This document shows, in pieces, positions 5,601-27,930 of a DNA stretch of 64,000 bases. Made by a program: the position numbers and the translations under genes. Source of the DNA: Terriglobia bacterium. GTDB taxonomy: Bacteria; Acidobacteriota; Terriglobia; Terriglobales; Acidobacteriaceae. The notes under the pieces are model-generated. The model was given only the letters and a program-made list of their open reading frames with translations, was not told where the DNA came from and did not search any database. Where the stretch lies: the NCBI GenBank assembly GCA_963758275.1, contig CAVWUW010000031.1, positions 183,745 to 247,744 on the forward strand, written 5' to 3'. Positions within the stretch are counted from its first letter, which is position 1. Each line of letters opens with the position of its first letter.

Positions 5601-8600
5601 AAAATGCCACTGAGTTCAAACGGCAAGCTTGACCGCAAAGCCTTAACTCAACTCGAAGCTGCCCACTTGCAGGAGTCGCGGAGCTATATTGCCCCACGCA
5701 ACATACTCGAAGACAAAATTGCGCAGATATGGGCAAAGGTGTTGCAGGTCGAGCAAGTGGGCGTAGACGACCATTTTTTTGATCTTGGCGGCCACTCGTT
5801 GCGCTTGATGCAGGTCCACTCAGAACTCAAGCAGAAGCTGCAGATTGATATTCCCGTCATCGATCTATTCCGTGTTCCCACAGTATCAGCGCTTGCAAAC
5901 TACATAACCGCGGTTAAGGACGTTACAAAATCTGGTGAGCCTACGGCGAATTTTCGAACCCAAGCCGAAGATACTTCCATTGCTGTAATCGGCATGGCAG
6001 GGAGATTCCCGGGCGCCCGCAACATCGAGGAGTTCTGGGAAAATATCAAAAATGGAGTGGAATCAGTTTCATTCTTCTCTGATGAAGAACTTTCGGATGT
6101 GCCGGATGCCGTGCGGGGCGATCCAAACTTTGTAAAGGCCGCCGCAGTCCTGGAAGACGCTGACTTTTTCGATGCCGATTTCTTCGGGTTTCGACGTCGC
6201 GAAGCGGAAACAACGGACCCGCAGCAGCGGGTCTTTCTTGAATGCGCATGGGAAGTGCTGGAACGAGCAGGCTACGATTCAGAGCGCTATCCGGGAGCAA
6301 TCGGGGTGTTCGCCGGGATGGCCACAAGCAGCTATTGGTTCAATTTATGTAGAAATCCGGAAGTTCTGGAATCCGTGAACAGCTTTCAATTGACAATTGG
6401 CAATGACAAGGACCACCTGCCTCTACGGGTTTCCTATAAGCTGAACTTGAAAGGTCCGAGCATAAGCGTGCAGACCGCGTGCTCCAGTTCGCTGGTGGCG
6501 GTGCATTTGGCCTGCCAGAGCCTCCTGGATGGCGAATGCAAAATGGCCATGGCGGGTGGAGTTTCGATCAGGGCCGTACAAAAAACCGGCTATGTTTACC
6601 AGGAGGGTGGAATAAGCTCTCCTGATGGCCACTGTCGCGCATTTGATGCTGATGCCGCCGGCACGATATCGGGGAACGGAGCGGCAGTAGTGCTTCTTAA
6701 GAAGCTTAAGGATGCGATCGCCGACGGAGATCATATTCATGCGATCGTTGTGGGATCGGCTATTAATAATGATGGGGCATTCAAAATTGGGTATACGGCC
6801 CCCAGTATCGATGGCCAGGCCGATGTCATTGCGCGCGCCCAGGCCAGAGCAGGAGTTCCTGCCGATACCATTACCTATGTTGAAGCTCATGGAACGGCAA
6901 CCCCTCTGGGAGACCCAATTGAAGTGGCGGCGCTTACCCAGGCTTTCCGGTTGCAAACGAATAAGACACAATTCTGCGCCATCGGCTCAGTCAAAACTAA
7001 TATAGGCCACCTTGATGCAGCCGCCGGCATAGCCGGTTTTATCAAAGCGGTCTTGGCGCTTGAAAGCGGTTTGCTCCCGCCCAGCCTGAATTTCAGGAAG
7101 CCCAATCCGAAAATTGATTTCTGTGCGAGTCCCTTCTTCGTCAATTCGAGATTCCAGAAATGGGAATGCGCTTCCGGGCCGCGTCGGGCCGGGGTGAGCT
7201 CGTTCGGTATTGGCGGCACGAACGCTCACGCGGTTTTGGAAGAGGCTCCTCAGCAGGAACCCGACAACCGCGAGTCGCAACCGCAACTGTTGCTCCTTTC
7301 CTGCAGGAGTGACGCAGCTCTGCAAAAAACTACTCTCAAGTTAGCTGAGCATCTGAAAAGTCATCCGGAACAGTGCATCCTAGACGTGGCCTATACGTTG
7401 CAGGAGGGGCGCAGGGAATTCGCCTTCCGTCGGGCAATTCTTTGTCAAAGCAGTGCTGATGGCATAAGAGCAATGGAGTCTGGCGATACGCAGAGGATCA
7501 TCACTGGAAAGTCAGAAACAGCGTCTCTCCCAGTTTACTTCCTCTTCCCCGGCCAGGGCGCGCAGTATGTCAACATGACGCGTGGGCTATATGAATCCAT
7601 TCCTGTGTTTCGCCGGGAGGTGGACCGCTGTTCGGAAATTCTTCGGTTACAGCTGGGATTCCATCTGGAGACTCTGCTTTACCCTGGAGAAGGCAGCCCC
7701 GAAGATCTCGAAGAGAAAATGCGGCAGACGGCGAACGCGCAGCCTACTCTCTTTGTGATCGAGTATGCATTGGCATCCTTGTGGATGGAGTTGGGAATCC
7801 GGCCACAGGCGATGTTGGGCCATAGTCTGGGCGAGTATGTGGCTGCATGCATGGCGGGCGTGATGTCTCTGGAAGACGCTTTGCGGCTGGTAACCGTTCG
7901 TGGGCAGCTCATGCAAAACATGCCGCCAGGCGCAATGCTGACGGTTGCCATGCCACATCACAGGGTAGCCGAACTGTTGAGCAATCATAAAGATGTTGCT
8001 CTTGCGGCAGTCAACGCAGAGGAGTCATGCGTAGTCTCTGGATCCGAAGAAGCGATTGTCCGACTGGAAACACAACTCGTAGAGCAGGGTTTTGAACCGC
8101 AACGCCTCCGCACGTCGCATGCCTTCCACTCGCCAATGATGACGCCAGTGGCTGAGTCTCTCAGGCATGTGTTGACCGGGATCAAGTTCAAAAGCCCCTG
8201 CATCCCTTTTCTGTCGAACCTGACTGGCGGATGGATTACACCGGAACAAGCCTCCAGCGCAGAATATTGGATCAAACATCTGCTTCACACCGTGCGTTTT
8301 TCGGATAATCTGCGTCATTTGCTCAAGGAACCCGGCGGTACTTTGCTGGAAATGGGACCAGCCACTTTAACTGTCCTGGCCAAGAGATATCCTGAGCGAC
8401 GCTCGGAGACCAGGCTACTCGCGTCTATCAAATCGAGAGCAGAAAAGGAGTCTGAATACTTGTCATTCCTGCACTCCGTGGGAACATTGTGGGCTGATGG
8501 CAGGCAGCTTCTCTGGCACATTTTGCCGCGTCACGGGAAGTGCAAGCGGGTGATACTGCCTACCTATCCGTTTGAAAGGCAGCGATACAACGTTCCTATA

Positions 8601-8840
8601 CCGGCACAGACGATACAAAGTTCAGTTACTGAGAGCACGGCCGAAAGTGCGCCTGGCCCGACATTCTTCGGGAATGTCGAGGCAGCTTTCATCGCAACCT
8701 GCAAGCCCCGCGCCCAGTGCGGGGACAATGGAAAGTGGCAAGACGAACAAGCCTCAACTCTTTCTGCCCAACAATTAGTGCTTCAACAGCTTGATGTTGT
8801 AGCCAGGCAGTTGGAGTTACTGCGTAAACGCGTTCCATAA
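2685..8840 (+). CDS. Hybrid NRPS-PKS: C-A(Ser-like)-T-KS-AT(malonyl-type), with no ACP in this polypeptide
   Basis: C motif HHILFDGWS lies at 3186-3206. A cores are AYVIYTSGSTGKPKG, YGPTE and NGKLDR. PCP motif is FFDLGGHSL (Ser 5796-5798). KS motifs are TACSSS (Cys 6480-6482), EAHGTATPLGDP and NIGHLDAAAG. AT motifs are GHSLGEY (Ser 7824-7826) and HAFH (8118-8129). The post-AT motif YPFERQRY is followed by a helical tail, and no GxDS carrier motif occurs after the AT. Confidence 0.95.
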   Translation: MGNNSKTERNASDAKEQSAHGSLSSIALPRRPAGARVPLSFSQRQLWFIQQMIPNTPAYNVPWALKLEREVDITVLQRAANEIIRRHEALRTRFGASDGEPVQLIEPELHITIEREDLSGISVEERQGILRRRLGEEGRKPFKLERLPLLRIRLFQLGGEQVLLTVVHHILFDGWSLEIFYRELEALYTAYRQGESSPLPEFSIQYSDYAYWQAESLRQGELEEGIEYWKKQLTGTPWSLELPADYPRPVTPRFEGASIDFEISEPVTRSLKELSRKSGVTLYMTLLAAYAVLLQRYTRQEQILIGTPIANRSLEELQRLIGFFANTLVMRVDLRGNVRFTELLKRVRESALGGYAHQDVPFELLVERLKPERSLNRTPLFQTMFVMQSSSHLSGGGFLSGYAVNTDLPVAKFDLSLSMRERHGKLSAEFNYDISLFAADTIRRLQNNFIFLLEELSKAGPLRLSDLTSMLSSGERDEIRHWNSTDVCYGRGERLHVLFEKQVQAAPERLALVCEQGNLTYREVNRRANQLAHYLQKQGVGPELCVGVCMERSWEMVVALLGILKTGAAYLPLDPEYPTERLHWMQHDARVNVVLTQEKFSHRLDRSKGTRVIPLDTSWSFVSQERDHDCLASVSGENVAYVIYTSGSTGKPKGVMNRHRGICNRLLWMQQAYRLHESDRILQKTPYSFDVSVWEFFWPLIAGARLVIARPGGHRDSTYLRDVIKKEGITTIHFVPSMLKSMLEDEGLRGCRSLRSVICSGEALGLGLKEQFYRQCQAGLHNLYGPTEAAVDVTFWECERETTRSAVPIGRPISNTQIYLLDQNLMEVPVLATAELCIGGEGLSRGYLNRPDLTAEKFLPNPFGEKGTRLYRTGDLARFLNDGAVEYLGRMDNQVKVRGNRIELGEIEEVLKQHALVQDGAVIAHEETGGEKRLIAYIATKKDVSVRAQDLRAYLKDRLPDFMIPGAFVFVEKMPLSSNGKLDRKALTQLEAAHLQESRSYIAPRNILEDKIAQIWAKVLQVEQVGVDDHFFDLGGHSLRLMQVHSELKQKLQIDIPVIDLFRVPTVSALANYITAVKDVTKSGEPTANFRTQAEDTSIAVIGMAGRFPGARNIEEFWENIKNGVESVSFFSDEELSDVPDAVRGDPNFVKAAAVLEDADFFDADFFGFRRREAETTDPQQRVFLECAWEVLERAGYDSERYPGAIGVFAGMATSSYWFNLCRNPEVLESVNSFQLTIGNDKDHLPLRVSYKLNLKGPSISVQTACSSSLVAVHLACQSLLDGECKMAMAGGVSIRAVQKTGYVYQEGGISSPDGHCRAFDADAAGTISGNGAAVVLLKKLKDAIADGDHIHAIVVGSAINNDGAFKIGYTAPSIDGQADVIARAQARAGVPADTITYVEAHGTATPLGDPIEVAALTQAFRLQTNKTQFCAIGSVKTNIGHLDAAAGIAGFIKAVLALESGLLPPSLNFRKPNPKIDFCASPFFVNSRFQKWECASGPRRAGVSSFGIGGTNAHAVLEEAPQQEPDNRESQPQLLLLSCRSDAALQKTTLKLAEHLKSHPEQCILDVAYTLQEGRREFAFRRAILCQSSADGIRAMESGDTQRIITGKSETASLPVYFLFPGQGAQYVNMTRGLYESIPVFRREVDRCSEILRLQLGFHLETLLYPGEGSPEDLEEKMRQTANAQPTLFVIEYALASLWMELGIRPQAMLGHSLGEYVAACMAGVMSLEDALRLVTVRGQLMQNMPPGAMLTVAMPHHRVAELLSNHKDVALAAVNAEESCVVSGSEEAIVRLETQLVEQGFEPQRLRTSHAFHSPMMTPVAESLRHVLTGIKFKSPCIPFLSNLTGGWITPEQASSAEYWIKHLLHTVRFSDNLRHLLKEPGGTLLEMGPATLTVLAKRYPERRSETRLLASIKSRAEKESEYLSFLHSVGTLWADGRQLLWHILPRHGKCKRVILPTYPFERQRYNVPIPAQTIQSSVTESTAESAPGPTFFGNVEAAFIATCKPRAQCGDNGKWQDEQASTLSAQQLVLQQLDVVARQLELLRKRVP
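5970..7250 (+). other. Ketosynthase domain (Cys-His-His present)
   Basis: Runs from IAVIGMAGRFPGA to GTNAHAVLEEAP and carries the active-site motifs TACSSS, HGTATPLGD and GHLDAAAG. Confidence 0.9.
7533..8390 (+). other. Acyltransferase domain, malonyl-CoA-type motif
   Basis: Motifs FPGQGAQY, GHSLGEY and HAFH are present. HAFH is the malonyl-type signature; the methylmalonyl-type is YASH. Confidence 0.85.
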
Positions 8841-8914: not shown

Positions 8915-11900
8915 ATGTCATCAACAGCTTCTAGTCGGCTGCAAGATCCGGGCCGGAAGCAGCGGATCACGAGCGCTTTGACCCAAATGCTCGCGAAACT
9001 CTTCGGCAAGAATGCCGCAGAGTTGGATGTCAACGCGTCCATGATTGATCTGGGCGGCGATTCTCTGTTTTTTTTGCAGGCATCGAACGCAATTCGAGAA
9101 AACTTTAACATCAAGATTCCATTCAGGCTCCTGCTGGAAGAACTGTCAACGATCGATAGTCTGGCTGATCATCTTGACCAGAAGCTTACTCCTGATGCTG
9201 TGGCCGGTATCGCGGAGAGTTCCAGTTCTCCGATCCAGGTTCAATCCCTGGCTGCGGAGCTGGCTTTGAGTCCGGTAGTACCCGTGGCGCAGGAGCAGGT
9301 TGTGAGTCAGCGGATCAAACAATCTATTGTTGCGCAGCAAATGGATGCCGGGAGCCAGGCAACGAATGCTAACGCAGAGGGAGATCCCATCTATCAAATA
9401 TTTGCCCAGCAACTGGCGCTCATGTCGCAACAAATTGCCATCCTTACAGGCCAGCCTAATACAAGCGCGCAACATCTTCGGAGTCCTCAGCCTTCTTTGG
9501 GCTCCGGGGTGCAACCATCTTTACCGCTTCTCGCTTTGGCTCAAGCACAACTGTCCCCGGTTGGGGCGGCTTCGTCCAGAGACGAAGTTAACCTGCGTTC
9601 CTCTTCAGAAATCGAACCTGAGGTTTATGTCCCCTATGAGGCGATTCAGCCTGAGGCCGCAAAATCTTTGACAGAGCAGCAGCGAAAATATCTTGCAGGC
9701 TTGATTGAGCGCATTAATCGCTGTACGGGAGAGTCCAAGCGGATTACTCAGGAATATCGGAAGTACCACGCGGACAACCGAACTGCCGCAGGCTTCAGAA
9801 TGCCCTGGAAGGAGATGTTCTATCCCCTGGTCGTGGAGCGGGGGCAAGGGTCCCACATATGGGACGTGGATGGAAATGAATATATCGACATGACCATGGG
9901 CTTTGGCGCGCTGCTGTTTGGGCACTCCCCGAAGTTCATTATGGATACGCTGGCAAAGCAGTTGGACCTCGGCATCAGGCTGGGACCGCACTCCAGAGAA
10001 GCAGGAGAAGCCGCGCATCTCATCTGTGAGATGACTGGCGTGGATCGCGTTGCTTTCTGCAACTCCGGAACTGAAGCGATCATGACTGCGCTACGTTTGG
10101 CGCGCACTGTTACCGGCCGCTCCAAGATTGCTCTCTTTGAAGGGTGTTATCACGGCACCTTCGATGGGATCCTCGTGAAAGGGGAAAGAAAGCCGGATGG
10201 AAGCCTACAAGCTATTCCTCTGGCGCCGGGTGTGCCTGGGCACATGATCGAGAACGTGCTCATGCTCAAGTATGACGATCCTCAGTCTCTGGAAATCTTG
10301 AGAGCGCGCGCCGGCGAGCTTGCTGCGATCCTGATTGAGCCTCCAAGGAGCCGCCGGCCGGATGTGCAACCCAGGGAGTTCCTGCTTGAACTGCGCCGTA
10401 TCAGCGAGACCTCAGGAGCTGCTCTCATTTTTGACGAGGTCGTCACCGGATTCCGTTTCCATCCAGGCGGGGCGCAAGCCCTGTTCGGAATTCGCGCCGA
10501 TCTGGTTACCTACGGGAAGGCGCTTGGAGGGGGGCTGCCCGTCGCCGCGGTTGCGGGGAAATCCAAGTTCATGGATGCGGTGGATGGCGGGATGTGGCAG
10601 TACGGAGATGGGTCTTATCCGGAATCAGAGATCACGTTCTCCACCGGAACCTATTTCAAGCATCCGCTGATCATGCCCGCTGTGGTTGCCGCTCTCAAGT
10701 ACATCAAGGAGAGCGGTTTCCAGTTGCAGGAATCACTCAACGCAAAGGCCAAATATGCAGCCGACGAGTTGGACGCCTTCTTCAAAGCCAAAGCCTTTCC
10801 TTTGAGAGTTGCACAAATCGGATCTCTATTCCGCCTCCTTCACGGCCCTGAACTGCGATACATGGACCTTTTCTACTATCACCTCCTGGAGAAGGGGATC
10901 TATGTTTGCGAGACTCATAACTGTCTGGTTTCCACTGCTCACAGTGACTCTGATATGGAAGTAATGATCCGGGCAGCGAAGGAGAGCTTGCTTGAGATGC
11001 GAGAAGAAGGATTCCTACCCGCTACTTCTTTGACATCCACAGGCTCCCCTGCGCATCGGGCAAATGGCACCGGTCCTACCGGCACGAGCACCCCTATCCG
11101 GGTGCCCTTGACGGAAGCGCAACGCCAGATCTGGGCTGTATCGCACATGGGAGAAGGAGACTCGCGTGCTTACAACCTGCCTCTTGCGGTTCAATGGCGG
11201 GGTGAATTAGACGTTCCACTGCTCCGGAAAGTGATTAACCATGTGGTCGAACGGCATGAGGCATTCCGCGCGACGTTCAGCTCTGATGGTGACTTCCAAA
11301 CGATATCGCCGACGACGATTGAGGTTCCCCTGGTGGACCTTTCCGGCCTGAAACCGGAAGAACAGCAGGCCCAGGCGGAACAGTGGCGCACGTTGGACGC
11401 GACCCGGGTGTTTGATTTCGTCTCCGGACCGCTATTGAGCCTGCGATTGCTCAAGTTCAAATCGGATCTGCATACCCTTCTGATTACGATGCACCATATC
11501 ATCAGCGACGGGTGGTCCCTGGGCATGTTCATCAACGAAATGCAGCAAATCTATTGCGCTGAACTGGGTGGAACAAGCCTGGAACTAGCTCCACCCAAGT
11601 CTTTTGCTGAATATGCAACGCACAAGGCACAGCAGGAAAGCCAACTGGCCAATTCTGAGGCAGAGAGGTTCTGGCTCACTGAATTTCCGAATTCGATTCC
11701 TCCGCAGCGTCTGCCTGCCGATGCTCTGGGGCAGGGAGAATCCGGAATTCTTGGAACCCAGAAAAGGCTGGTCATGACATCCACGGCAATGACCGAATTG
11801 AAAGAGATCAGCCGGCGGTACAGTTGCACGAGTTTCATGGTCTTTTTGGCCGTCTGCAAAATCTTTATTTACTACCTGACCAAACAGGAAGAGGTAGTCA

Positions 11901-12502
11901 TCGGAGTTCCGACCGCCGGACAGAGCCTTCCCGATGGCGGATATCTCGCGGGTTGCTGCGTCAACCTGCTTGCATTCCGCACACACATGAACGCCGAGTT
12001 GAGCTTCCCGCAACTGGTGGTCATGTTGCGGCAGAAACTCGTGAAAGCTTATGAACATGAGGATTATCCGTTCAATCTCCTTTTGAAGCGCTTGCGAACC
12101 ATGCACCCGCAGCGGCCTGAGCCCGCCATTTCGGTGATTTTCAACCTCGACCGGGCGCAAACCAAGAAGAAGCGCGAAGACTTTGACCTGACCGTGATGA
12201 CCAATCACAATCAAACTTCAAAGTTCGATTTGACTGTGGATGTGACTGAAACGCAAGACTCTCTCATCATTGACTTCGAATATAAGAGCAATCTGTTTAC
12301 CAGTGAGCGGATCACCTGCTGGATGGGGCTGTTCGAGAAACTCATCCAGGAAATCAGCAAGCGCCCGGCCCAGACCATCCGCGACTACTTTGCTGTTTTA
12401 CAGGAAGAAGAAGCCCGCCAGAATGCTCTGGCTGCACAGGAACTCAATCGCCAGGAATACCAAAGGTTTGCAGCCAGCAGACGTAAAGTCGTTGCAAGCT
12501 AA
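8915..12502 (+). CDS. ACP - PLP-dependent class-III aminotransferase (AMT) domain - C domain protein
   Basis: ATG 8915 lies downstream of AAGGAG; the ORF track offers TTG 8894 as an alternative start. ACP motif is DLGGDSLFF (Ser 9062-9064), followed by a Q/S/P-rich linker. The GSA-aminotransferase-like core shows GFGALLFGH, FCNSGTEA, IFDEVVTGFR and TYGKALGGG (Lys codon 10517-10519). The C domain carries HHIISDGWS (11492-11512). Confidence 0.9.
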   Translation: MSSTASSRLQDPGRKQRITSALTQMLAKLFGKNAAELDVNASMIDLGGDSLFFLQASNAIRENFNIKIPFRLLLEELSTIDSLADHLDQKLTPDAVAGIAESSSSPIQVQSLAAELALSPVVPVAQEQVVSQRIKQSIVAQQMDAGSQATNANAEGDPIYQIFAQQLALMSQQIAILTGQPNTSAQHLRSPQPSLGSGVQPSLPLLALAQAQLSPVGAASSRDEVNLRSSSEIEPEVYVPYEAIQPEAAKSLTEQQRKYLAGLIERINRCTGESKRITQEYRKYHADNRTAAGFRMPWKEMFYPLVVERGQGSHIWDVDGNEYIDMTMGFGALLFGHSPKFIMDTLAKQLDLGIRLGPHSREAGEAAHLICEMTGVDRVAFCNSGTEAIMTALRLARTVTGRSKIALFEGCYHGTFDGILVKGERKPDGSLQAIPLAPGVPGHMIENVLMLKYDDPQSLEILRARAGELAAILIEPPRSRRPDVQPREFLLELRRISETSGAALIFDEVVTGFRFHPGGAQALFGIRADLVTYGKALGGGLPVAAVAGKSKFMDAVDGGMWQYGDGSYPESEITFSTGTYFKHPLIMPAVVAALKYIKESGFQLQESLNAKAKYAADELDAFFKAKAFPLRVAQIGSLFRLLHGPELRYMDLFYYHLLEKGIYVCETHNCLVSTAHSDSDMEVMIRAAKESLLEMREEGFLPATSLTSTGSPAHRANGTGPTGTSTPIRVPLTEAQRQIWAVSHMGEGDSRAYNLPLAVQWRGELDVPLLRKVINHVVERHEAFRATFSSDGDFQTISPTTIEVPLVDLSGLKPEEQQAQAEQWRTLDATRVFDFVSGPLLSLRLLKFKSDLHTLLITMHHIISDGWSLGMFINEMQQIYCAELGGTSLELAPPKSFAEYATHKAQQESQLANSEAERFWLTEFPNSIPPQRLPADALGQGESGILGTQKRLVMTSTAMTELKEISRRYSCTSFMVFLAVCKIFIYYLTKQEEVVIGVPTAGQSLPDGGYLAGCCVNLLAFRTHMNAELSFPQLVVMLRQKLVKAYEHEDYPFNLLLKRLRTMHPQRPEPAISVIFNLDRAQTKKKREDFDLTVMTNHNQTSKFDLTVDVTETQDSLIIDFEYKSNLFTSERITCWMGLFEKLIQEISKRPAQTIRDYFAVLQEEEARQNALAAQELNRQEYQRFAASRRKVVAS
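8960..9190 (+). other. ACP domain that completes the KS-AT module of the preceding protein
   Basis: LGGDSL carrier motif in a four-helix-sized segment at the N-terminus of the protein. Confidence 0.8.
9640..11010 (+). other. Aminotransferase (AMT) domain of the MycA/McyE type
   Basis: Class-III aminotransferase motifs with the putative PLP lysine in YGKALGGG. The domain sits between an ACP and a C domain. Confidence 0.8.
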
Positions 12503-12514
12503 GGAGCAATAATT

Positions 12515-13565
12515 ATGAGTCAGTCAGAAAGCGCCGTGCGGGTGCGTTCCCCGTTTACCGCCCGCCGCAAGTCTGTGGGCAGTTTTTCTGAATGGACCAG
12601 GAAGAGCTATCTCCAGTCAGAAGATGGCCCGGTAGTGATTGCGGCTGTTGATGGACCTTGACCTGATGGCGTGGACCCAGCAGAATACGTCGTCGCTTAA
12701 AGACATGATCGAAAAACATGGGGCTGTGCTGCTGCGTGGCTTTGCTGTGAAGACGGTTGAGGCCTTCCGCAACTTCGTGCTGGCGCTATCCCCCAACATG
12801 CTGGAATACAAGGAGCGTTCTTCGCCCCGTCATAAAGTCCAGGCGGACATTTACACTTCCACCGACTACCCCGCCCATCAACGCATTTTCTTTCACAATG
12901 AGAATTCATATCAGTTCATATGGCCGATGAAGATATGCTTTTTTTGTTCCCTGCCGGCAGAGCACGGCGGAGAAACGCCCATCGCCGATGTTCGGAGGGT
13001 TTATCGGCGGTTATCGCCTAAGACGATCCAACGCTTCGAAGAAAAGTGCTGCATGTACGTACGAAACTTTGATGAGGCCCTGGGTCTTTCCTGGCAGGAA
13101 GTATTTCAGACCAGCGACCGGCTTCAGGTGGACGGGTACTGTAAAGATAACGGCATTACCTGTGAGTGGAAAGAAAACAACGGATTGCGCACCCGCGCAA
13201 TCCGTCCAGCAGTTGCGGTTCATCCCAGGACCGGTGAACGGGTGTGGTTCAACCACGTTGCGTTTTTCCACATCTCCACCTTGGATGCGTCGATACGCGA
13301 CGGACTGCTGGCGGCCATGCCTGAATCCGACTTGCCTGCCAATAGCTATTACGGAGATGGCTCTTCCGTTGAAGAGGATGTGATCGAGGAAATTCGCTCC
13401 GCCTATCGTAGTGAATCCGTCAGCTTCCCCTGGCAAAAGGGTGACATCCTTGCTGTTGACAACATGCTTACCGCGCATTCCCGCAATCCGTTCGTGGGAG
13501 AAAGAAAAATCCTGGTCGGGATGGCCGAACCTTATTCACGCCGGCAAGACCTGGAAGCTCTCTGA
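12515..13565 (+). pseudogene. TauD/TfdA-family (SyrP-like) Fe(II)/2-oxoglutarate amino-acid beta-hydroxylase, with its frame broken by an apparent 1-nt insertion near 12656
   Basis: ATG 12515 has a strong SD (AAGGAG). It encodes MSQSES...SYLQSEDGPVVIAAVDGP and then stops at 12659. The +1 frame continues as (L)DLMAWTQQ...KHGAVLLRGF...YKERSSPR...IYTSTDYPA...FFHNENSY (His 12894, Glu 12900). That sequence is typical of the NRPS-associated TauD clade, including the N-terminal extension. Skipping the C at 12656 restores ...AAVDGLDLMAW.... The ORF track only reports 12639-13565. Confidence 0.8.
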
Positions 13566-13604
13566 GTCATTACTTATCCCTGCGGATCTTTTACCGGAGT
13601 TAGC

Positions 13605-16600
13605 TTGAATACCCAAGTAATGGGAGGTTATCGCCTCTCTCCTCAGCAACAGCATTTATGGCGGCTGCAGGAAACGCATCTGGATTATCCGCATTCCGTT
13701 TCTGCGGTCCTGATGTTTGAAGAGGTCCTGGACGCCGTCCGCATTCAACGGGCACTTGTCAAGGTAATTGACCGTCATGAGATCCTTCGCACGGTATTTC
13801 GTCCATTGGGAGCGCTTCAATTCCCGGTGCAAGTGATCCGTCCTGATGCTGACGTATGGCTTCCAGCGGCAGATTCAAGTGAAGGTGTCGAAGCGAGCGA
13901 CTGGTCTTTGCAATTAGACAAGATTTACCGCGACTTCCGTGGCCGTACCTGGGATGTGCAAAATGGGCCCTTGATTCAGGCGCGCATTGTGAGCTTGCCA
14001 GCTTCGAGACAGGCAGTCCTGATCAGGCTTTCCAAATTTTGCTCAGACAAAGCCGGTTTGCGTAACGTAATTCTCCAGATGCTCCAGATTTATAAGGGGA
14101 GCACCTTACACGGGCCAGAGCAGCCTCCCCAATACGCTGATGTTTCAGAATACCTCAATGAAGTGCTTGAATTAGAAGATACCGCCGTGGGACGGCAATT
14201 TTGGAACCGGTGGAGAGCTGAGCTGCTTCCACCGCTTCGGCTGGCTACTCATCCGGTCAGTGATGACGAGACAGATGAAGGCTGCTTGCGTTGGAATCTT
14301 GATTTCGAGACAGTGGCCAGGGTAGAAGAATTGGCTGCTCACACGGGAACGGCTGTCACGGACATTGTCATGGCAGGGTGGCAAGTTGTGCTTGCCCGTT
14401 CCTTGCGACAGGAAGAGTTCACTCTGGGAATCGTATGCAGCGGCAGACGACTAGAAGGTCTGGAGAACACTCCAGGATTATTTGAGAGGACACTCCCCTT
14501 ACCCTGCCGTATCACCCGCGAACAACCCTTCAAAGAACTCGTCCGGCACGTGGCCAGGAACACCGAGCAGCTCGCGCAGTGGCAGGATTACTTCAGTTAT
14601 GGGGCTATCGGCGAAAACACCACAGCGCCTATCGCTTTTGAATACTGTGCATTACCACCGCTGCCTGCAGATGATCTTACAATCGCGGCATTCACGATTG
14701 ATGAAAGTTTGTATCCGCATCAGCTCAAGCTGTCGTGCTTCTGGAATGTCAAATCACCCTTGCTTCAAATCTCATACCAACACGGTGCTTTGTCTGAGAG
14801 GGACGTCGCTGCGCTCGGCGACCAGTTGAGCGCTCTCCTGTTGAATGCGGCAGCATCTCCATCGGCCCCTGCCGGAAAACTCTCAACCCTCAGCCCCGCC
14901 GCAAAAGATTTCTTGTTGCACCAGCTGAATAGGACAGAGGTCATGTACTCAAGCGTGCCTTTTACCCACGCGCGCTTTGAATTGCAGGCGCGCCAGAGTC
15001 CAGCCCAGCCAGCCCTAGTTGCAGGCGAAATGACTCTCACGTATGGGGAACTTGATGAGAGGGCCACGCGCTTGGCTGATGTCCTCAAATCACGTGGCAT
15101 AGGGCCGGAGAGCGCCGTGGTTGTCTCTATGGAACGCTGCCCGGAGTTGCTCATTTCACTCTTGGGGATTCTGAAATCGGGAGGCTTTTATATTCCACTT
15201 GATCCGGGGTATCCAGCCGAGCGCCTCGCATTTGTGCTGCGGGACAGCAGGGCAGCGTTGGTGTTAAGCAAAGCGGAGTGGAATTCCCGGTTCGCAGCCA
15301 GTCAAGTACCAATTCTCAACCTTGATGATGACTGGATGCGGGAAGAAGTGAGCGGTAATACCAAAGCAAAGTTACATCCCCATAATCTGGCCTACACAAT
15401 TTATACATCCGGATCCACAGGCCAGCCAAAGGGCGTTGCCGTCAGCCATGCTGCGTTGGCGAACTATCTGAGCTGGTGCGAGCAAAAGTATGATTTGGCC
15501 AAAGGTCGCGGCGTAATTGTGCATTCACCCATAGGGTTCGATCTCACAGTTACAACCCTGCTCGCGCCGCTCTCGGCGGGACAAACGATCATTCTGGTTG
15601 AGGGGGAAGACCCAACGGAGGGCCTGGCCCGCTTGTTACGTAGGGATGCGCACTTGACGTTACTAAAAATTACGCCGGCACATTTACAGGCGCTCAGTCA
15701 GATGCTCGATCCGAAGGAACTTTCAGGGGCAGTGGATACCGTAATCATTGGCGGCGAGGCGCTTCTCAGTAATCATGTCGGAACCTGGCAAGTCGAATCG
15801 CCTCAAACGCGCCTGATCAACGAATATGGTCCCACTGAAACCACGGTGGGCTGCAGCATCTACGAGATGCCGCGGTCTTCTCTTACTAGCGGGCCGGTTC
15901 CAATCGGCAAACCCATCGCGAACGCGAAGCTCTATGTTTTCGATGCTGAAATGCAGCCTTTGCCAATCAAGTCTGTGGGTGAGTTGTATGTCGGTGGTGT
16001 CGGCCTGGCCAGGGGCTACCTCGGGCAGCCTGCCCTCACGGCAGAAAGATTTTTGCCGCATCCCTTCTCCACCAGCCCGGGTGGACGGTTATACAAGACC
16101 GGGGACATGGCCCAAGTCGATGCCGATGGCACGCTGCATTTTCTGGGGCGAGCAGACGATCAGATCAAGCTCCGCGGTTACCGCATCGAACTGGGAGAAA
16201 TCGAATACATTCTTCGGCAACATCCTGGCGTTCGTGAAGCGGCGGTCGTTCTCAAGGACTGCGGAGATCAAAAGCAGCTTGTCGCTTATGTTGCGCTCAC
16301 AAAGCCTGTTGCGGTCACAAAGCCCGGCCAACCTGCGATTGCCGGTCTGCAGAACTTCCTCCTGAATAAGTTGCCGGAATACATGGTCCCCACGCAGATG
16401 ATTGTGCTTGATCAGTTGCCTCTCACTTTTCACGGCAAGGTTGATAAGCGTTCTCTGCCAGGTCCCAACTTGCAGTCGAGCAACTTACAGCCCAAATATG
16501 TTGCTCCCCGCAACGCGAAGGAGCAAATACTGGCCGATCTCTGGGCCAGGGCCCTGGGCCTGGAGCGTGTAGGGGTTCGTGACAATTTCTTTGAACTCGG

Positions 16601-18185
16601 CGGGGATTCCATCATCAGCATTCAGATTGTTAATCGAGCAAAACAGCTGGGGCTAGCCTTTACACCCAGGCAGCTATTCCATCACCGGACCATTGCTGAG
16701 CTTGCAGAAGTCGTCAAGACTGATTCGGACGCCGCTCCCATTCCAGCAAAGGTGCTCCAGAGTGACGTAAAGCTCACGCCAATACAGAGATGGTTCTTTG
16801 AGCAGAACTTTGCTTGCCCACACCATTGGAACCAGGCAATGCTCTTCGAGGCGCACGAAGAGATTGACGCTGCGCTGCTGGGAAAGGCATTGAGCGCGGT
16901 GTTGGAGCAGCATGATGCGCTGCGACTGCGGTTTGGGGCGACGGGGAGCATAAGGCCTTCATTGGTGGCAGAAGCTGGTGTCCCACACATTACCGTGCTG
17001 AACTTGACGCGGGTCGCGGTGGAACAGCATTCAGAACTTCTGGAAAAGTTTGCCGCGGATATCCAATCTGGACTCGACCTGTTCCAAGGACCCGTGATGC
17101 GGGTTGGATTGGTGCGAATGCATGGTGCGCGTGATCGAATACTATGGGTGGTTCATCACCTCTCCGTTGATGTTGTGTCCTGGGGCATCCTGCTTGCAGA
17201 TCTTACCGCGGCTTACCGCCAACTCAAGCAGGGGGCGGCAGTTCATCTTCATCCCAGGACTTCTTCTTTCCAGGAATGGTCGCTAAGGCTGCATCAACAC
17301 GCAGATTCTGAAGATATAAGACGGGAAGCGCATTATTGGCTTTCACCAGCTCGCCGCAATTGCGCAAAGCTTCCTGTTGATTTCCCCAAGGGTCAGAATC
17401 TTGAATCGTCCGCGCAAATCCTGTGGTGTTCGCTGAACAGCCAGGAAACCAGCGGTCTCATGCAGCAGGTTCCCAGGGCACATCACACCATGATCAACGA
17501 CGTGCTGCTAACTGCCCTGATGCAATCGTTCTATAACTGGACTAATGAGAGAAGTCTTACCCTGGATCTTGAGAACCACGGCCGCGAAGAGCTGTTCGAG
17601 GACGTGGACCTTTCCCGAACCGTCGGCTGGTTCACCTGCATCTTCCCAGTCACACTGGGCTTAGCTTCCCCTTATGACTGCGTGCAAAATCTTCGGGCCG
17701 TAAAAGAGCAGATCAGATCGATTTCAAACGGTGGGGTTGGCTACGGCCTGCTGCGGCACATCACGAACGACCCCGAGGTTCACAATGCGCTACAGCAACT
17801 ACCGCAGCCTGAGATCAATTTCAATTATCTGGGGCGGTCAGGGCAGAAGATAGATGATAAGCCGTTATTCGCGAGCTGTGACGGTGTGCTGGGCCCCTCG
17901 CGCAATCCATGTGCCCACCGGGCCTATCTTTTGGAGGTTACTGGCGGTGTAAACCGCCAGGGGGAACTCCGAATGGCTTTCATTTACAGTCGAAACCTTC
18001 ATCGAGAAACCTCAATCCAGAAGCTGGCCGATGGTTTTGTGGAAGCCCTCCGCGAAATCGTGCGCAGCTCTTCCGACCAACCTGTCGTCCCCTCCCTGGT
18101 GGATCTCTCTATGACCCAGCTCAACAACAGGGACCTGAACCGTCTAGTTGAAGAACTGAGCAGGAGCGAAGAAACCGGTGAATAA
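13605..18185 (+). CDS. NRPS: degenerate C-like (interface-type) domain - A(Asn-like) - T - E
   Basis: The N-terminal C-family fold (YRLSPQQQHLWRL...) has SKFCSDKAG in place of HHxxxDG (14031-14057). A cores are AYTIYTSGSTGQPKG, YGPTE and HGKVDKR. The carrier motif FFELGGDSI (Ser 16608-16610) is the form usually seen before an E domain. The E-domain motif HHLSVDVVSW lies at 17154-17183. Confidence 0.93.
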   Translation: MNTQVMGGYRLSPQQQHLWRLQETHLDYPHSVSAVLMFEEVLDAVRIQRALVKVIDRHEILRTVFRPLGALQFPVQVIRPDADVWLPAADSSEGVEASDWSLQLDKIYRDFRGRTWDVQNGPLIQARIVSLPASRQAVLIRLSKFCSDKAGLRNVILQMLQIYKGSTLHGPEQPPQYADVSEYLNEVLELEDTAVGRQFWNRWRAELLPPLRLATHPVSDDETDEGCLRWNLDFETVARVEELAAHTGTAVTDIVMAGWQVVLARSLRQEEFTLGIVCSGRRLEGLENTPGLFERTLPLPCRITREQPFKELVRHVARNTEQLAQWQDYFSYGAIGENTTAPIAFEYCALPPLPADDLTIAAFTIDESLYPHQLKLSCFWNVKSPLLQISYQHGALSERDVAALGDQLSALLLNAAASPSAPAGKLSTLSPAAKDFLLHQLNRTEVMYSSVPFTHARFELQARQSPAQPALVAGEMTLTYGELDERATRLADVLKSRGIGPESAVVVSMERCPELLISLLGILKSGGFYIPLDPGYPAERLAFVLRDSRAALVLSKAEWNSRFAASQVPILNLDDDWMREEVSGNTKAKLHPHNLAYTIYTSGSTGQPKGVAVSHAALANYLSWCEQKYDLAKGRGVIVHSPIGFDLTVTTLLAPLSAGQTIILVEGEDPTEGLARLLRRDAHLTLLKITPAHLQALSQMLDPKELSGAVDTVIIGGEALLSNHVGTWQVESPQTRLINEYGPTETTVGCSIYEMPRSSLTSGPVPIGKPIANAKLYVFDAEMQPLPIKSVGELYVGGVGLARGYLGQPALTAERFLPHPFSTSPGGRLYKTGDMAQVDADGTLHFLGRADDQIKLRGYRIELGEIEYILRQHPGVREAAVVLKDCGDQKQLVAYVALTKPVAVTKPGQPAIAGLQNFLLNKLPEYMVPTQMIVLDQLPLTFHGKVDKRSLPGPNLQSSNLQPKYVAPRNAKEQILADLWARALGLERVGVRDNFFELGGDSIISIQIVNRAKQLGLAFTPRQLFHHRTIAELAEVVKTDSDAAPIPAKVLQSDVKLTPIQRWFFEQNFACPHHWNQAMLFEAHEEIDAALLGKALSAVLEQHDALRLRFGATGSIRPSLVAEAGVPHITVLNLTRVAVEQHSELLEKFAADIQSGLDLFQGPVMRVGLVRMHGARDRILWVVHHLSVDVVSWGILLADLTAAYRQLKQGAAVHLHPRTSSFQEWSLRLHQHADSEDIRREAHYWLSPARRNCAKLPVDFPKGQNLESSAQILWCSLNSQETSGLMQQVPRAHHTMINDVLLTALMQSFYNWTNERSLTLDLENHGREELFEDVDLSRTVGWFTCIFPVTLGLASPYDCVQNLRAVKEQIRSISNGGVGYGLLRHITNDPEVHNALQQLPQPEINFNYLGRSGQKIDDKPLFASCDGVLGPSRNPCAHRAYLLEVTGGVNRQGELRMAFIYSRNLHRETSIQKLADGFVEALREIVRSSSDQPVVPSLVDLSMTQLNNRDLNRLVEELSRSEETGE
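13620..14900 (+). other. C-family domain with a degenerate active-site motif (candidate interface domain)
   Basis: The length and N-terminal motifs are those of a condensation domain, but both catalytic His residues are absent (SKFCSDKAG). Confidence 0.7.
16750..18110 (+). other. Epimerisation domain
   Basis: Shows TPIQRWFFEQ, HHLSVDVVSW, and a preceding GGDSI carrier motif. The next protein starts with a DCL-like YPLVPLQRGLLF. Confidence 0.85.
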
Positions 18186-21100
18186 TTTGTGGAATGTTGA
18201 GGGGGTTTATCCCCTGGTTCCTCTCCAGAGAGGGCTGCTGTTTAACAGTCTCTATTCTCCGGGTTCGGGTGTCTATGGCCAGCAATTGCGGATGACCATT
18301 TCAGGTCCGCTTGATCCCGCAATAATGAGAAAGGCATGGGAAAAGATTATTGAGCGGCATTCCAGCCTGCGCACCTCCTTTATATGGGAGCGCCAGGAGG
18401 AGCCTGTCCAGGCGGTAAGGCGGCGCGTAAAGCTGCCCTGGCAGGAATTGGATTGGCGGCCGTTCAGTGGAACAGAACAGCGCGAGAAGCTGGAGGCTTT
18501 CCTGCGTGCAGACAGGGAAAAGGGCTTTGATTTCACCCGTGGCCCGCTGCTGCGAATTACATTGATACGAACTGGCGATCAAGCTTACGAACTGACGGCG
18601 ACCAGTCATCACATCATTCTCGACGGCTGGTCAAATTTCATTGTGGTCAAGGAGTTGATATCTCTTGTCAGGAGCCTCCATGAAGACAAGGAAAATGACG
18701 GATTGGCCGGACGGCCGCCAGCCTATCGAGATTACATACGGTGGGTTCAACAGCAGAATCCCGCCTTGGCCGAGTCTTTTTGGCGGAAGTCCCTCCAGGG
18801 CATCACTGAGCCGACCCTTATCCCAGGCATGCAGCCGGGCCATGTCCACGGTGACGCAACCCGGCAACGAAGCTGCGAGTTGCGGCTTGAACCTCAGGTA
18901 AGGGAACGATTGCAGGAGTTTGCCACAACCTGCGGTATCACGCTTACCACCGTGCTGGCCGGGGCCTGGGCTTTGCTCCTGGGTTGTTGCAACAATCGGG
19001 AAGATATAATTTTCGGGCTGACAGTCCACGGTCGTCCACTCTCCCTCCCCGGTGTGCAGGAGATGGTCGGGCTTTTCATCAACACCCTGCCTTTTCGAAC
19101 CGCCGTTAATCCCGAGTCGAATTTGTCCGACTGGCTGCAAGATTTCCAGTTCCACTTGCTGGAATTACAAGAGCACGCTTACAGCGACCTGGTCAAGGTG
19201 CATCAGTGGAGTGACATAGGTCCTGGACGGCCGTTGTTTGAAAGTATCTTCGTCTTTGACAATTACCCTAAGGAACGCGCCGCTTCAGCCGATACAAATA
19301 AATTCTTATTTCAGAATGTTCATTCCATTGACACCGGCAGCTTTCCCCTTGCCATTATTGCCGCTGCGGATGAAGATCTATGTCTTGGAATGACCTATGA
19401 CAGCGCCCGAATCGATGAGCTTTATGCAAAACGCCTTCTTTACCGCTACGGCGCAGTTTTAGAAAGAATCCAGAAGTCGCCTGTTCAGAAGCTGTGGGAG
19501 ATAACAGCGCTCTCTCACGCTGAATCTGCACAACTTGCAGGTGAGAACAATAAGACACATCGTGATTTCGGAAGGCCGATTTGCTTGCACCAGATGTTCG
19601 AAAGGCAATCCGCCGCGTCACCGGAAGCCATTGCGCTTACTTTGGGAGAGCAACAGTGGACCTATCGAGACGTGAACGAACGCGCCAACCGGCTTGCCCT
19701 CCACTTGCGCAGGAATGGGGTACGGCCCGAACATCGGGTGGGCGTTCACCTGGAATCTTCGGCAGACACAGTGCTGGCAATTCTGGCAGTTCTTAAAGCC
19801 GGCGGAGCGTACGTGCCACTGGATGCAGGATATCCGCAGGAAATCCTCAATCACATGGTTTCCGATGCCGGCGTGCAAATAGTTATTACTGAGAAAAAAC
19901 TTTCTGCAAACCTGCCCTCGGGAGTGGCCGGGCTCGTGGAACTCGGCACGGAGGAGAATGAAATTGACGTCGAGTCCGGCGACAACTCGAGCGCCGACGT
20001 CTCCCCTGCTAATCTGGCTTACGTAATCTACACCTCCGGATCTACGGGGTTACCCAAAGGCGTAGCTGTTACGCACCGCAATGCTTTCAGCGTCATTCAA
20101 TGGTTTATTCACGCCTTCTCCGTGAGCTCTTCAGACAGAATGCTGCTCGGGGTTTCGACTTCTTTCGATCCTTCAGTGGCTCAAATATTCTCGGCCTTGT
20201 GTTCTGGCGCAGAACTGGTGTGCATGAAACCCGCCCCTCATGATGCACCTTACATCCTGAGCATTATTGAAAAGAAACAAGTGACCGTGATGGATTTTCC
20301 GCCATCAGTGCTTTCTCTTCTGCTCAGCGACGCAAAGCCCGAACAGTTCAGGTCCGTGCGGCGTGTGTTGGCGGGTGGCGAGCCTACGCCGTCAAATCTG
20401 CTGTCAAGGCTCTTTTCAAAGCTTCCGGTTCCTTTCTCTAACCTTTACGGCCCTACAGAAACATGCATCAATGCCAGTTGCTGGACATGCACGGCAGATT
20501 CCTTTGCTCCGCCGGTTTCAATTGGCCGCACTATTGCGAATGCGAAGATCGGTTTGCTGGATCGGTGTCTTCAACCCGTGCCAGTTGGCGTTCAGGGTGA
20601 AATTTTCATTGGTGGCGACGGTGTGTCTCGCGGATATCTCAACCGCCCGGAACTGACTGCGGAGAAGTTCATACCCGATCCCTATTGCAGCACACGCGGA
20701 GGCCGTCTGTACCGAACTGGAGATTTGGCCCGTTACCTCGATGATGGGAATATCGAATTTCTCGGTCGTGTGGATTCTCAGGTCAAGATCCGCGGAGTGA
20801 GGATCGAATTGGGGCAAGTGGAGGCTGCGGCCAGAGAACATTCGGCTGTGCGTGAAGCTGCCATCGTGGTGCGAGAGAACCGCGACAATGAACCCCTGCT
20901 TGCAGCCTACGTATCTACTCGTCAACCACTTCTCGATCGTGAACTCAAAGCATTTCTCAAGACCAGGCTTGCTCAGCCCATGGTTCCGTCGATCATCATG
21001 TTTCTGGACCAGTTGCCCAGGCTGCCTAACGGCAAGGTCAACCAGAAGCTCCTGCCTGCCATCGATCTGGAATCCGGCGGCAAGACACAAAGGGCTCCGC

Positions 21101-26804: not shown

Positions 26805-26822
26805 ACGATCCAGGAGGATACA

Positions 26823-27056
26823 ATGCACGACGAACAGGAAGATAAAACTATTTATAAGGTAGTTGTAAACCACGAAGAACAGTATTCCATCTGGCCGGCG
26901 CACCGCGAGAACGCGCTCGGATGGAGAGATGAAGGAAAAGTGGGCCCGAAAGCCGAATGTCTCGCTCATATCAAAGAGATATGGACTGACATGAGACCGC
27001 TCAGTCTGCGCAAGACCATGGATAACGCGCGTCCCGTGGGAACTGGAAACTCATAA
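26823..27056 (+). CDS. MbtH-like protein
   Basis: 77 aa with the signature [26 protein letters not shown]...[15 protein letters not shown]. An AGGAGG SD precedes the start. Confidence 0.95.
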
Positions 27057-27070
27057 GAGGTCAAATCTGT

Positions 27071-27850
27071 ATGCCGGCTGTAACTACTTCTTTGCAAGCG
27101 GGCAAACGGACTTGGGTGAAAATTCCCCGGCATGCTAGTTCTTCCAAGGTACGCTTGTTTTGCTTCCCTTATGCCGGAGGACGCTCCCAGGTCTTTCGCG
27201 AGTGGGTAAACGCGTTTTCAACTGGCATTGAGGTTTGCCCGGTGCATCTTCCCGGCGAAAACATTAGGGAACCCTGCCTTACCGCGGTTGACGAGCTGGT
27301 TCCCATGTTGGCTGAGGGGTTAAGGGCTTACTTTGACAAGCCTTTCGCGTTCTTCGGCCACAGCATGGGCGCCATCATTGCCTTCGAACTTCTGCGCTTT
27401 ATGCAACGGAACCATGGACCCAGGGCTGCGCATTTGTTTGTCTCTGCACGGAGCGCTCCCGGCGTGCCGAACACGAACAAGCCTCTTCATGATCTGCCAG
27501 AACCGGAGTTGATCGCCGAATTGAAACTGTTGAATGGCACTCCGCGCGAAATTCTGGACAATGCAGACGTCCTTGACCTTTTGCTGCCAAGGATCCGTGC
27601 AGACTTCCAGTTGAATGAGACTTACTCCTATCTACCTGGTGAAGTCCTTGACTGTGGGATCACCGCTTATTGCGGAACTGAAGACTCGCATGTGCTTCCC
27701 GAAGAGATGCTTACATGGCGCAATCAGACGAGCGACGCCTTCACTTTGAATCTCCTGCCGGGTGATCATTTCTTTCTGCAAACGCAGCAGGCTGAGCTTC
27801 TGGCAAGCATCTCAGGCTCGCTGGCAATGGATCTGGCGCGGGCAGAATAA
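27071..27850 (+). CDS. Type II (editing) thioesterase
   Basis: Shows FCFPYAGG, GHSMGA (a GxSxG motif) and C-terminal PGDHFF, at about 260 aa. Confidence 0.9.
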   Translation: MPAVTTSLQAGKRTWVKIPRHASSSKVRLFCFPYAGGRSQVFREWVNAFSTGIEVCPVHLPGENIREPCLTAVDELVPMLAEGLRAYFDKPFAFFGHSMGAIIAFELLRFMQRNHGPRAAHLFVSARSAPGVPNTNKPLHDLPEPELIAELKLLNGTPREILDNADVLDLLLPRIRADFQLNETYSYLPGEVLDCGITAYCGTEDSHVLPEEMLTWRNQTSDAFTLNLLPGDHFFLQTQQAELLASISGSLAMDLARAE

Positions 27851-27930
27851 GCTCGGCTGCAGCAGGCAAATCAGTCCTTCTCACACATTCAGGAAAGGCC
27901 ATTGCCGTCTTGCTGCCGATTAGACTAATC

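Follow-up and report, generated by a model that had tools for sequence, protein, structure and literature searches.

The genes described here most probably form an NRPS module of a familiar kind, trans-hydroxylated and equipped with an interface domain. They lie in a gene cluster of the peptide-antibiotic type, an NRPS/PKS island without the appearance of a siderophore cluster, within the window, by which we mean the whole 64,000-nucleotide stretch of DNA that was analyzed; the host is an Acidobacteriota relative of Ca. Angelobacter. The cluster neighbors comprise an MFS exporter, SbnA/B-like genes, a tryptophan halogenase and a KS-AT-aminotransferase module, and no TonB-type uptake genes were seen among them. 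In the deposited sequence, the hydroxylase gene of the module is frameshifted by a single extra base, T12652. Judged from related sequences, this base probably reflects an error in the consensus of the deposited assembly; at most, it would be a variant that is unfixed or carried by a minority, and not a trait of the pathway. We would give this combined reading, of the module and of the extra base, a probability of about 70%.

The module extends over three genes on the forward strand. The upstream gene (8915-12502) encodes a T-aminotransferase-C protein with a catalytic C domain at its C-terminus (11084-12434; PF00668, E 1.5e-85), whose HHIISDG motif is found at 11492-11512. It is followed by the hydroxylase gene and then by a gene (13620/13605-18185) with the domain order C-like, A, T, E, as the initial annotation had described. 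The C-like domain (13620-14960) is full-length, covering positions 5-456 of PF00668 (E 4e-46), and its PDB matches are C domains; at 14031-14057, however, it reads SKFCSDKAG in place of HHxxxDG, with SKFCSDK aligned to HHSISDG of TycC. It thus has a condensation-family fold without the catalytic histidines, placed between the working C domain plus hydroxylase on one side and the A domain on the other. The A domain (14976-16439), assigned by Pfam, carries the code DLTKIGEVGK, which points to Asn as the substrate; the extraction was validated on CcsL, where it returned DLTKIGHVGK, reported to be Asp-specific. The earlier proposal of a module built for β-hydroxy-Asn or β-hydroxy-Asp is supported, with the code favoring the former. 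The carrier (T) domain (16527-16712; PF00550, E 1.7e-14) has the serine in a GGDS motif and is the presumed site at which bound Asn gets hydroxylated. The epimerization (E) domain (16758-18077), a second PF00668 stretch with the motif HHLSVDVVSW, groups with E domains.

Translation bears out the description of the hydroxylase gene as a TauD-family gene that starts at ATG 12515 and is broken by a TGA, with the remainder in the +1 frame. The frameshift is present in the deposited sequence. A Shine-Dalgarno sequence, AAGGAG, can be read at 12501-12506, 8 nt before the start codon and overlapping the stop codon of the upstream gene. The first piece (12515-12661) comprises 48 codons, ends with the TGA at 12659-12661 and corresponds to the depositor's 48-aa call P0122; the second (12651-13565), assigned by translation and a Pfam TauD match, comprises 304 codons in the +1 frame from ATG 12651, the depositor's call, P0121, having 299 codons from ATG 12666. 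As to the lesion itself, the extra base had been taken to be a C at 12656/12657. Alignment to one contig of 98.7% identity (L001) and to another that is otherwise identical (L089), both of which lack the base, identifies it as T12652 instead, the change being from GTTGA-GGACC to GTTGATGGACC. The C deletion proposed earlier does restore the frame, giving AAVDGLDL, but it does not undo the actual lesion; the ancestral peptide, as aligned from the contigs of relatives, is AAVEDLDLMAW. T12652 lies outside any homopolymer and creates an in-frame ATG at 12651.

Apart from this base, the hydroxylase gene carries no other lesion. The iron ligands are intact in the second piece, with the H-N-E at 12894-12902, already noted in the initial annotation, and the distal His at 13476-13478. 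After repair of the frame, the protein matches the PF02668 TauD profile with 157 bits (cut-off 27; E 1e-45), and H127, E129, H321 and R330, the HxD/E...H triad and the C-terminal Arg, are invariant or nearly so across 101 homologs; a search against NCBIfam profiles gave no meaningful match. The predicted structure (pLDDT 89) shows a double-stranded β-helix fold, with 1Y0Z, ScoE and TauD as its best PDB matches. The closest solved folds are the clavaminate-synthase-like protein At3g21360 (PDB 1Y0Z; 324 aligned columns, among them those of the N-terminal strands, at a TM-score of 0.78/0.84) and the TauD/TfdA-like protein 9YUT, with sequence E-values of 6e-39 and 2e-38; at only ~26-29% identity, both lack an NRPS context and are unrelated in function. 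In the model, the first piece would span a predicted disordered tail (1-22) and the N-terminal β strands 28-32 and 40-44, and residues 31-50 have pLDDT values above 90.

What can be discerned about the biological reality of the frameshift? The most direct evidence comes from Logan contig L089 of run ERR11596060, whose 5,885 bases equal window positions 11720-17605 at every base but T12652. It encodes an intact hydroxylase of 349 aa (P0123) with all six residues that are specific for the window allele, and it is this independent assembly of the same strain, devoid of the extra base, which leads us to read the frameshift as a likely error. Two further contigs of this run differ from the window by 3 and 7 SNPs, with 0 indels, across 11.7 and 5.6 kb. 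The suggested comparison with orthologous clusters points the same way: in two syntenic clusters that are more distant, L001 (98.7% identical at the nucleotide level) and L083 (80% at the amino-acid level), the hydroxylase is intact, with 349 and 343 aa. Moreover, its pN/pS is 0.16, dropping to 0.11 downstream of the lesion, compared with 0.23-0.27 for the neighboring NRPS genes. Finally, a second isolated extra T is found at 44689 in a conserved gene of the same window that encodes an OPT transporter. This last frameshift is judged solely by orthologs of 742 aa and 98-99% identity, which continue uninterrupted across the site; the exact 742-aa sequence was not found in the contig collection, ERR11596060 included, and a related ENA assembly (contig_60132) has a private 1-nt insertion of its own in the OPT gene. 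Taken together, the L089 allele, the two intact orthologs, the low pN/pS and the second isolated T are the grounds on which we regard T12652 as an error or unfixed variant. A metagenome scan with both alleles of the frameshift site yielded no match. Exact searches of a contig index with the two hydroxylase pieces, orfB and orfD were likewise without matches; the source assembly and the Logan run were reached solely through the membership of P0001 in a 90% cluster.

These data also bear on the fates previously considered for the hydroxylase. Inactivation and N-terminal truncation are now disfavored and a rare error or an unfixed variant is favored, given the ERR11596060 assembly without the T. 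The earlier argument that about 25 kb of unbroken NRPS frame speak against poor base quality does not hold, as the OPT gene has its own isolated extra T; if indels occur about once every 30 kb, roughly one stretch of 23 kb in four should be free of them. The locus does not show the marks of a genuine frameshift pseudogene: the lesion is not reproduced in L089, from the same strain, and there is no relaxed selection (pN/pS 0.16), no further lesion and no loss of catalytic residues. Programmed ribosomal frameshifting was discarded, every relative examined having one continuous ORF without the insertion.

A different scenario is that T12652 is real and very recent, and that the hydroxylase is inactivated or weakened, so that the strain would make a non-hydroxylated (D-Asn) congener or less product. 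We consider this rather unlikely, although several observations lend it some weight. The T sits outside a homopolymer; frames elsewhere are preserved in coding regions relative to relatives of 96-99% identity; and the cluster is located in a variable island beside a tRNA-Leu, together with an IS630-type transposase and a decayed SDR gene. Furthermore, the Logan contigs are separated from the window by real-looking SNPs, 10 in 23 kb in total, so that the window and the Logan consensus differ in haplotype and T12652 could be a real private variant. However, the nearest sequence, identical across 5.9 kb, is without the T, selection on the hydroxylase is not relaxed, the 23 kb assembly line is otherwise unbroken, its dedicated interface domain included, and a conserved core-type gene, OPT, has a second isolated T insertion. 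Independently of this, errors in long reads most commonly take a form other than an insertion outside a homopolymer, which counts against the error reading.

It is also conceivable that the lesion is real but bypassed, with co-translated fragments that reassemble, re-initiation at ATG 12651 or 12666, or a +1 shift at CCU-UGA-C. Such a bypass could draw on the overlap of the 48-aa and 304-aa pieces as ATG...TGA, with the in-frame ATG made by the insertion 8 nt 5' of the stop codon and a second ATG 5 nt 3' of it, on a split that falls in a predicted loop of the model between strand 40-44 and helix 50-68, and on the presence of all catalytic residues in the second piece. Yet neither internal ATG is preceded by a Shine-Dalgarno site, strand 40-44 (P39, P44) is kept in almost all homologs, and nothing can have evolved around an insertion that is absent from relatives. 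As the proposal is, in addition, wholly inferential, we regard it as highly improbable, and an enzyme made from a real T12652 allele as two translationally coupled fragments is less likely than the wider use of interface domains considered below. With T12652 taken as an assembly error or unfixed variant, the hydroxylase should be treated as intact in cluster annotation and mining, and neither a non-hydroxylated product nor a dying pathway is to be predicted from it. Where this assembly shows an isolated insertion of one base, the reads should be consulted before a pseudogene is called.

The second peculiarity of the locus, the C-like domain without catalytic histidines, is best understood by comparison with its relatives. 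In a neighbor-joining tree of 82 domains, calculated with capped distances for divergences >85%, all HH-less domains and the N-terminal domain of CcsL form a single split, found in 100/100 bootstraps and apart from the catalytic C and E domains. This placement agrees with the initial annotation, which had proposed an interface-type domain and a phylogenetic test of it, and supports the assignment of 13620-14960 as the interface domain of a known module type, its membership following from the clade that it shares with CcsL. That annotation had also called the domain catalytically degenerate: the histidines are indeed absent, but the term is misleading, as their loss is, from the sequences compared, conserved throughout an old clade of domains under purifying selection (pN/pS 0.27) and not a local decay. 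The clade has its own motif, sL-P-A-L-C-A-D, in whose consensus P-A-L-C-A-D only the Asp is kept in 61/61 members. One might still argue, from its full length and its score with PF00668, that the domain is a decayed C domain or one with a different catalytic role, for example a dehydrating or otherwise special subtype, and does not serve in docking. This is very improbable: both histidines are replaced across a clade of >60 members that conserves P-A-L-C-A-D and retains only the structural Asp, the pN/pS is low, the HH-less domain pairs with a hydroxylase while an HH-containing C domain is present upstream in 51/69 loci, and the clade is shared with CcsL, whose product residue is simply hydroxylated. 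The N-terminal C-like domain should therefore be annotated as an interface domain, and neither as an inactive condensation domain nor as a spare module.

Interface domains were reportedly described by Reitz et al. (2019, PNAS) together with stand-alone aspartyl and histidyl β-hydroxylases of siderophore NRPSs, and the substrates described there are said to be Asp and His. The domain found here resembles this type in being a condensation-family member without the catalytic motif that precedes the A domain of the residue to be hydroxylated and co-occurs with a TauD-family hydroxylase; it differs in that the partner A domains of the relatives sampled are mostly of the Asn type. Interface domains are also recognized as an "I" subtype of condensation domains (PMC10212144), and profiles for them and for β-hydroxylases are available in antiSMASH 8 (PMC12230676).

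The closest parallel is CcsK/CcsL of the cyanochelin B pathway, encoded on plasmid 2 of Leptolyngbya sp. NIES-3755 (AP017310.1; BAU16062/BAU16061), which yields D-threo-β-OH-Asp (PMC12628792). There, too, an NRPS with a terminal C domain is followed by a stand-alone TauD-family hydroxylase and then by HH-less C-like, A, T and E domains; CcsL and the gene downstream of our hydroxylase are 38% identical over their full length, and the two hydroxylases 44%. The systems differ in the A-domain code, which is the Asp code DLTKIGHVGK in CcsL and the Asn-type DLTKIGEVGK here, and in their setting, a siderophore cluster in one case and MFS, SbnA/B-like, halogenase and KS-AT neighbors in the other. In its proposed function, the hydroxylase also resembles two further stand-alone Fe(II)/2-oxoglutarate enzymes, SyrP (syringomycin) and HynE (hypeptin), which act on Asp or Asn in the aminoacyl-S-carrier state and hydroxylate the β-carbon while the peptide is being assembled. 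The product of HynE on CAT or ATC constructs is 3-OH-Asn (PMC8252469); these assays used constructs of ordinary modules, and descriptions of the enzyme mention no interface domain. Laxaphycin/scytocyclamide was dismissed as a model for β-OH-Asn formation, as the authors propose cupin-8 enzymes for it and it is hence not comparable.

From these parallels, a route for the module can be proposed. The upstream protein ends in a working C domain, followed by the stand-alone Fe(II)/2-oxoglutarate TauD-family β-hydroxylase, and the next protein begins with the non-catalytic, condensation-fold interface domain ahead of the Asn-coded A domain and of T and E. From the examples of CcsK/CcsL and HynE, we infer that the hydroxylase acts on the carrier-bound amino acid, beside which it would be held by the interface domain if CcsK/CcsL and the model of Reitz et al. 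(2019) apply. The residue would then be hydroxylated at C-3 and epimerized, presumably to D-β-hydroxy-Asn.

The hydroxylase/interface module as such is thus already known, and the window adds an ordinary further member, whose A domain is of the Asn type and which includes an E domain, in an island without siderophore appearance. How widespread is this arrangement? As in the window, the hydroxylase is a separate gene adjoining an NRPS module with an interface domain in 69/101 homologs, where an HH-less C-like domain occurs within 400 nt after the hydroxylase; an HH-containing domain is found there in 0. Just upstream, 51 of these 69 loci have an HH-containing C domain, to which the hydroxylase is fused in 10, and the interface domain starts a new polypeptide in 70/71 cases. 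The three-part unit of catalytic C domain, free or fused hydroxylase and interface domain spans Acidobacteriota, Cyanobacteria and Chloroflexota, and the partner A domains in the relatives sampled are mostly of the Asn type (30), followed by Asp (14) and Gln (9) types. This suggests that, in soil phyla that have received little study, the interface arrangement is common with Asn- and Gln-type modules that do not belong to siderophore pathways, and the hydroxylase-interface pairing may, on these codes, extend past the Asp and His modules of siderophores. If the codes reflect true substrates, the interface domain could possibly be a general docking device by which Asn and Gln are β-hydroxylated in peptides other than siderophores, a generalization that we put forward tentatively. 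Two proteobacterial plasmid regions were examined for a classical siderophore interface domain, with no NRPS found within reach. On a Methylocystis plasmid, the hydroxylase is followed directly by an interface-type domain.

Is the break in the hydroxylase gene a property of the organism or of its assembly? The gene follows an AAGGAG Shine-Dalgarno sequence (12501-12506) and, as the initial annotation accurately described, starts at ATG 12515, reads MSQSES...PVVIAAVDGP up to a TGA at 12659-12661, and has the remainder of the TauD-family protein, H-N-E at 12894-12902 included, in the +1 frame, where it extends to 13565 with the distal His at 13476-13478. After frame repair the protein matches the PF02668 profile with an E-value of 1e-45. 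The broken gene (12515-13565) sits among NRPS/PKS genes that all lie on its strand: a (C)-A-T gene from position 11, a C-A-T-KS-AT gene (2685-8840), a T-aminotransferase-C gene with an intact HHIISDG motif (8915-12502), a gene encoding C-like, A, T and E domains (13620-18185), and a C-A-T-C-A-T-TE gene (18178-25398).

Alignment to L001, a JGI metagenome contig 98.7% identical to the window over 12.5 kb with an intact hydroxylase gene (P0001, 349 aa), places one surplus T at 12652 (GTTGA-GGACC becoming GTTGATGGACC), and not, as first proposed, a C at 12656/12657; the ancestral peptide at the lesion is AAVEDLDLMAW. T12652 lies outside any homopolymer and generates the ATG at 12651 in the downstream frame, with a further ATG at 12666; the only other indels against L001 over the 12.5 kb are two in-frame 3-nt changes. 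In L083, a second syntenic cluster with 80% amino acid identity, the hydroxylase gene is also intact (343 aa). The 90% protein cluster of P0001 has four members, namely P0001 itself, the 48-aa and 299-aa pieces from the window, and P0123, which comes unbroken, at 349 aa, from the Logan assembly of run ERR11596060 and has every residue separating the window allele from P0001. Its contig, L089 (5,885 bp), lacks T12652 and is otherwise base-for-base equal to window 11720-17605. Two further contigs of this run align to the window without indels, one with 3 SNPs over 11.7 kb and the other with 7 over 5.6 kb, so that across 23 kb the frameshifting T is the sole length difference between the window and this independent assembly of essentially the window's own strain. 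The comparison with related clusters, suggested earlier as a check, finds the hydroxylase unbroken in L001 and L083.

T12652 has an isolated counterpart elsewhere in the window. The conserved oligopeptide transporter (OPT) gene at 43877-46106 is split by an extra T at 44689 into ORFs of 272 and 460 aa (ATG AGC CCT GAT becoming ATG AGT CCC TGA); once repaired, the protein gives an unbroken alignment to TIGR00733, and orthologs from several metagenomes (742 aa, 98-99% identical) are uninterrupted at the site (ISQMSPDQLYGAY). In a 99.3% identical relative, ENA ERZ25039572 contig_60132 (L090), the OPT gene carries a private 1-nt insertion, an A, equivalent to window 45757, which suggests that assemblies of such kind contain sporadic single-base insertions. 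The earlier argument from the unbroken NRPS frame against poor base quality is weak, since, at a rate of about one such indel in 30 kb, a stretch of 23 kb would be free of them roughly a quarter of the time.

We therefore regard T12652 as a consensus error or minority variant, with a probability of about 0.7. Selection on the hydroxylase shows no sign of decay, its pN/pS being 0.16 overall and 0.11 past the lesion, compared with 0.23-0.27 for the flanking NRPS genes. A real, very recent mutation is distinctly less probable, with about one chance in four by our judgment; in its favor, the window and the Logan contigs differ by 10 SNPs, so the two consensus sequences are different haplotypes, which makes a real private variant possible. 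The small remainder falls to a real lesion that is bypassed. In an AlphaFold model built from a 101-sequence alignment (mean pLDDT 89), residues 1-22 are predicted to be disordered and are followed by a short helix (24-27), strands 28-32 and 40-44 with pLDDT >90, and a helix at 50-68. The break sits in the loop between strand and helix, making reassembly of the fragments or coupled re-initiation conceivable; however, neither internal ATG (12651, 12666) has a Shine-Dalgarno site. A protein begun at either of them would, according to the model, retain all catalytic residues and lose both strands. These strands are part of the fold, as the alignment to the top structural match, 1Y0Z, covers 324 columns; P39 and P44 are nearly invariant among the 101 sequences, and strand 40-44 is kept in short natural homologs, with one doubtful exception. 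The frameshift, from which the interest of the finding had come, is most likely no biological feature of the organism.

The C-like domain following the hydroxylase had been called degenerate. Its HHxxxDG motif is indeed absent, SKFCSDKAG (14031-14057) aligning to HHSISDG of TycC, but local decay is contradicted by a wider comparison, in which we classified all condensation-family domains at 80 genomic loci that carry hydroxylase homologs and come from Acidobacteriota, Cyanobacteria, Chloroflexota and other groups. A C-like domain without HHxxxD follows within 400 nt in 69 of the 101 hydroxylase instances and one with HHxxxD in none; 26 instances have no C-like domain nearby and 6 lie at contig ends. 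An HH-containing C domain ends at most 300 nt upstream in 51 of the 69 and is fused to the hydroxylase in 10 of these 51, and the HH-less domain opens a new polypeptide in 70 of 71 cases. The HH-less domains group as a single clade (100/100 bootstraps) in a neighbor-joining tree of 82 domains and carry the motif sL-P-A-L-C-A-D, of which only the Asp is invariant; the catalytic C domains of these loci have HH-I-[VI]-x-D-G-W-S at this position. Within the superfamily, the window's domain (pN/pS 0.27) is a non-catalytic member that is conserved and under selection. The initial interpretation as an interface domain gains support from its position, motif loss, co-occurrence with the hydroxylase, and a clade shared with the N-terminal domain of CcsL, the NRPS of the cyanochelin B cluster. 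The module is a further example of an already known type. PMC10212144 lists 'I (interface)' as a bacterial C subtype, and PMC12230676 mentions interface-related profiles in antiSMASH 8, with Reitz et al. 2019 as their source. In about ten relatives (L012, L030, L031, L033, L043, L055, L063, L070 and others) the upstream C domain carries the hydroxylase as a C-terminal fusion and the HH-less domain still begins the next protein; in L003, hydroxylase and HH-less domain share one stop-free frame. The HH-less domain of L066 (11021-12530), a cyanobacterial MAG with coverage 3.7, is split into two ORFs, probably another assembly frameshift.

In the published account of cyanochelin B, CcsL is Asp-specific and has an E domain, the stand-alone hydroxylase CcsK comes before it, and the residue in the product is D-threo-beta-OH-Asp (PMC12628792). 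On AP017310.1, CcsK follows an NRPS with a terminal C domain and precedes CcsL, which is the gene order of the window. CcsL, 38% identical over its full length to the window protein, shares its succession of an HH-less C-like domain (with PSLCADA in CcsL), A, T and E, and the other beta-OH-Asp module of that cluster likewise has an HH-less domain. Taking the ten specificity positions by alignment gives DLTKIGEVGK for the window's A domain and DLTKIGHVGK for that of CcsL, which we take, by the Stachelhaus code, to denote Asn and Asp; agreement of the CcsL code with the cyanochelin B paper validates the extraction. With its E domain, the window module is predicted to supply D-3-hydroxy-Asn. Among A domains following HH-less domains at the sampled loci, 30 are of Asn, 14 of Asp and 9 of Gln type (DAWQ[FWY]GLID[KR]). 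The Gln-type codes after hydroxylase-adjacent HH-less domains in L026, L030, L036, L049, L054, L060, L061 and L080 hint at beta-hydroxy-Gln modules of like build.

The cluster's accessory genes (25431-33366) encode an MFS exporter, an MbtH-like protein (about 26823-27056), a type II thioesterase, an SbnA/SbnB-like pair, which is linked to diaminopropionate, a flavin reductase and a tryptophan halogenase. No TonB-type uptake genes were seen among the cluster's genes, making it unlike a siderophore cluster. The remaining A domains have the codes DAFFLGVTFK, DVWHISLVDK (Ser-like), DPADLGLINK and DIWEITADDK, and the probable product is a halogenated peptide that includes diaminopropionate and a beta-amino acid. 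For the housekeeping genes, close relatives carry the name Candidatus Angelobacter (Acidobacteriota). Synteny with L090, followed down from 51855, ends precisely at 36085, where the 3' end of tRNA-Leu(CAG) lies (36085-36171, minus strand). This places the NRPS/PKS cluster in a segment that varies (within 1-36084) and is probably a genomic island with the tRNA as its insertion site. A short-chain dehydrogenase relic (35543-36060), frameshifted by +1 through an extra base near 35630 and by -1 through the loss of a C near 35774, is cut short at the start of this tRNA gene, and an IS630/DDE_3-type transposase (33796-34863, minus strand) lies just upstream of the relic. Against L084, a JGI 3300061779 contig 96-98% identical to the window, a second synteny break occurs at 46144, where in L084 a TPR protein instead of OPT precedes yggS, and a 1-nt indel at window 59823 alters the apparent start of a glycosyltransferase (387 versus 322 aa).
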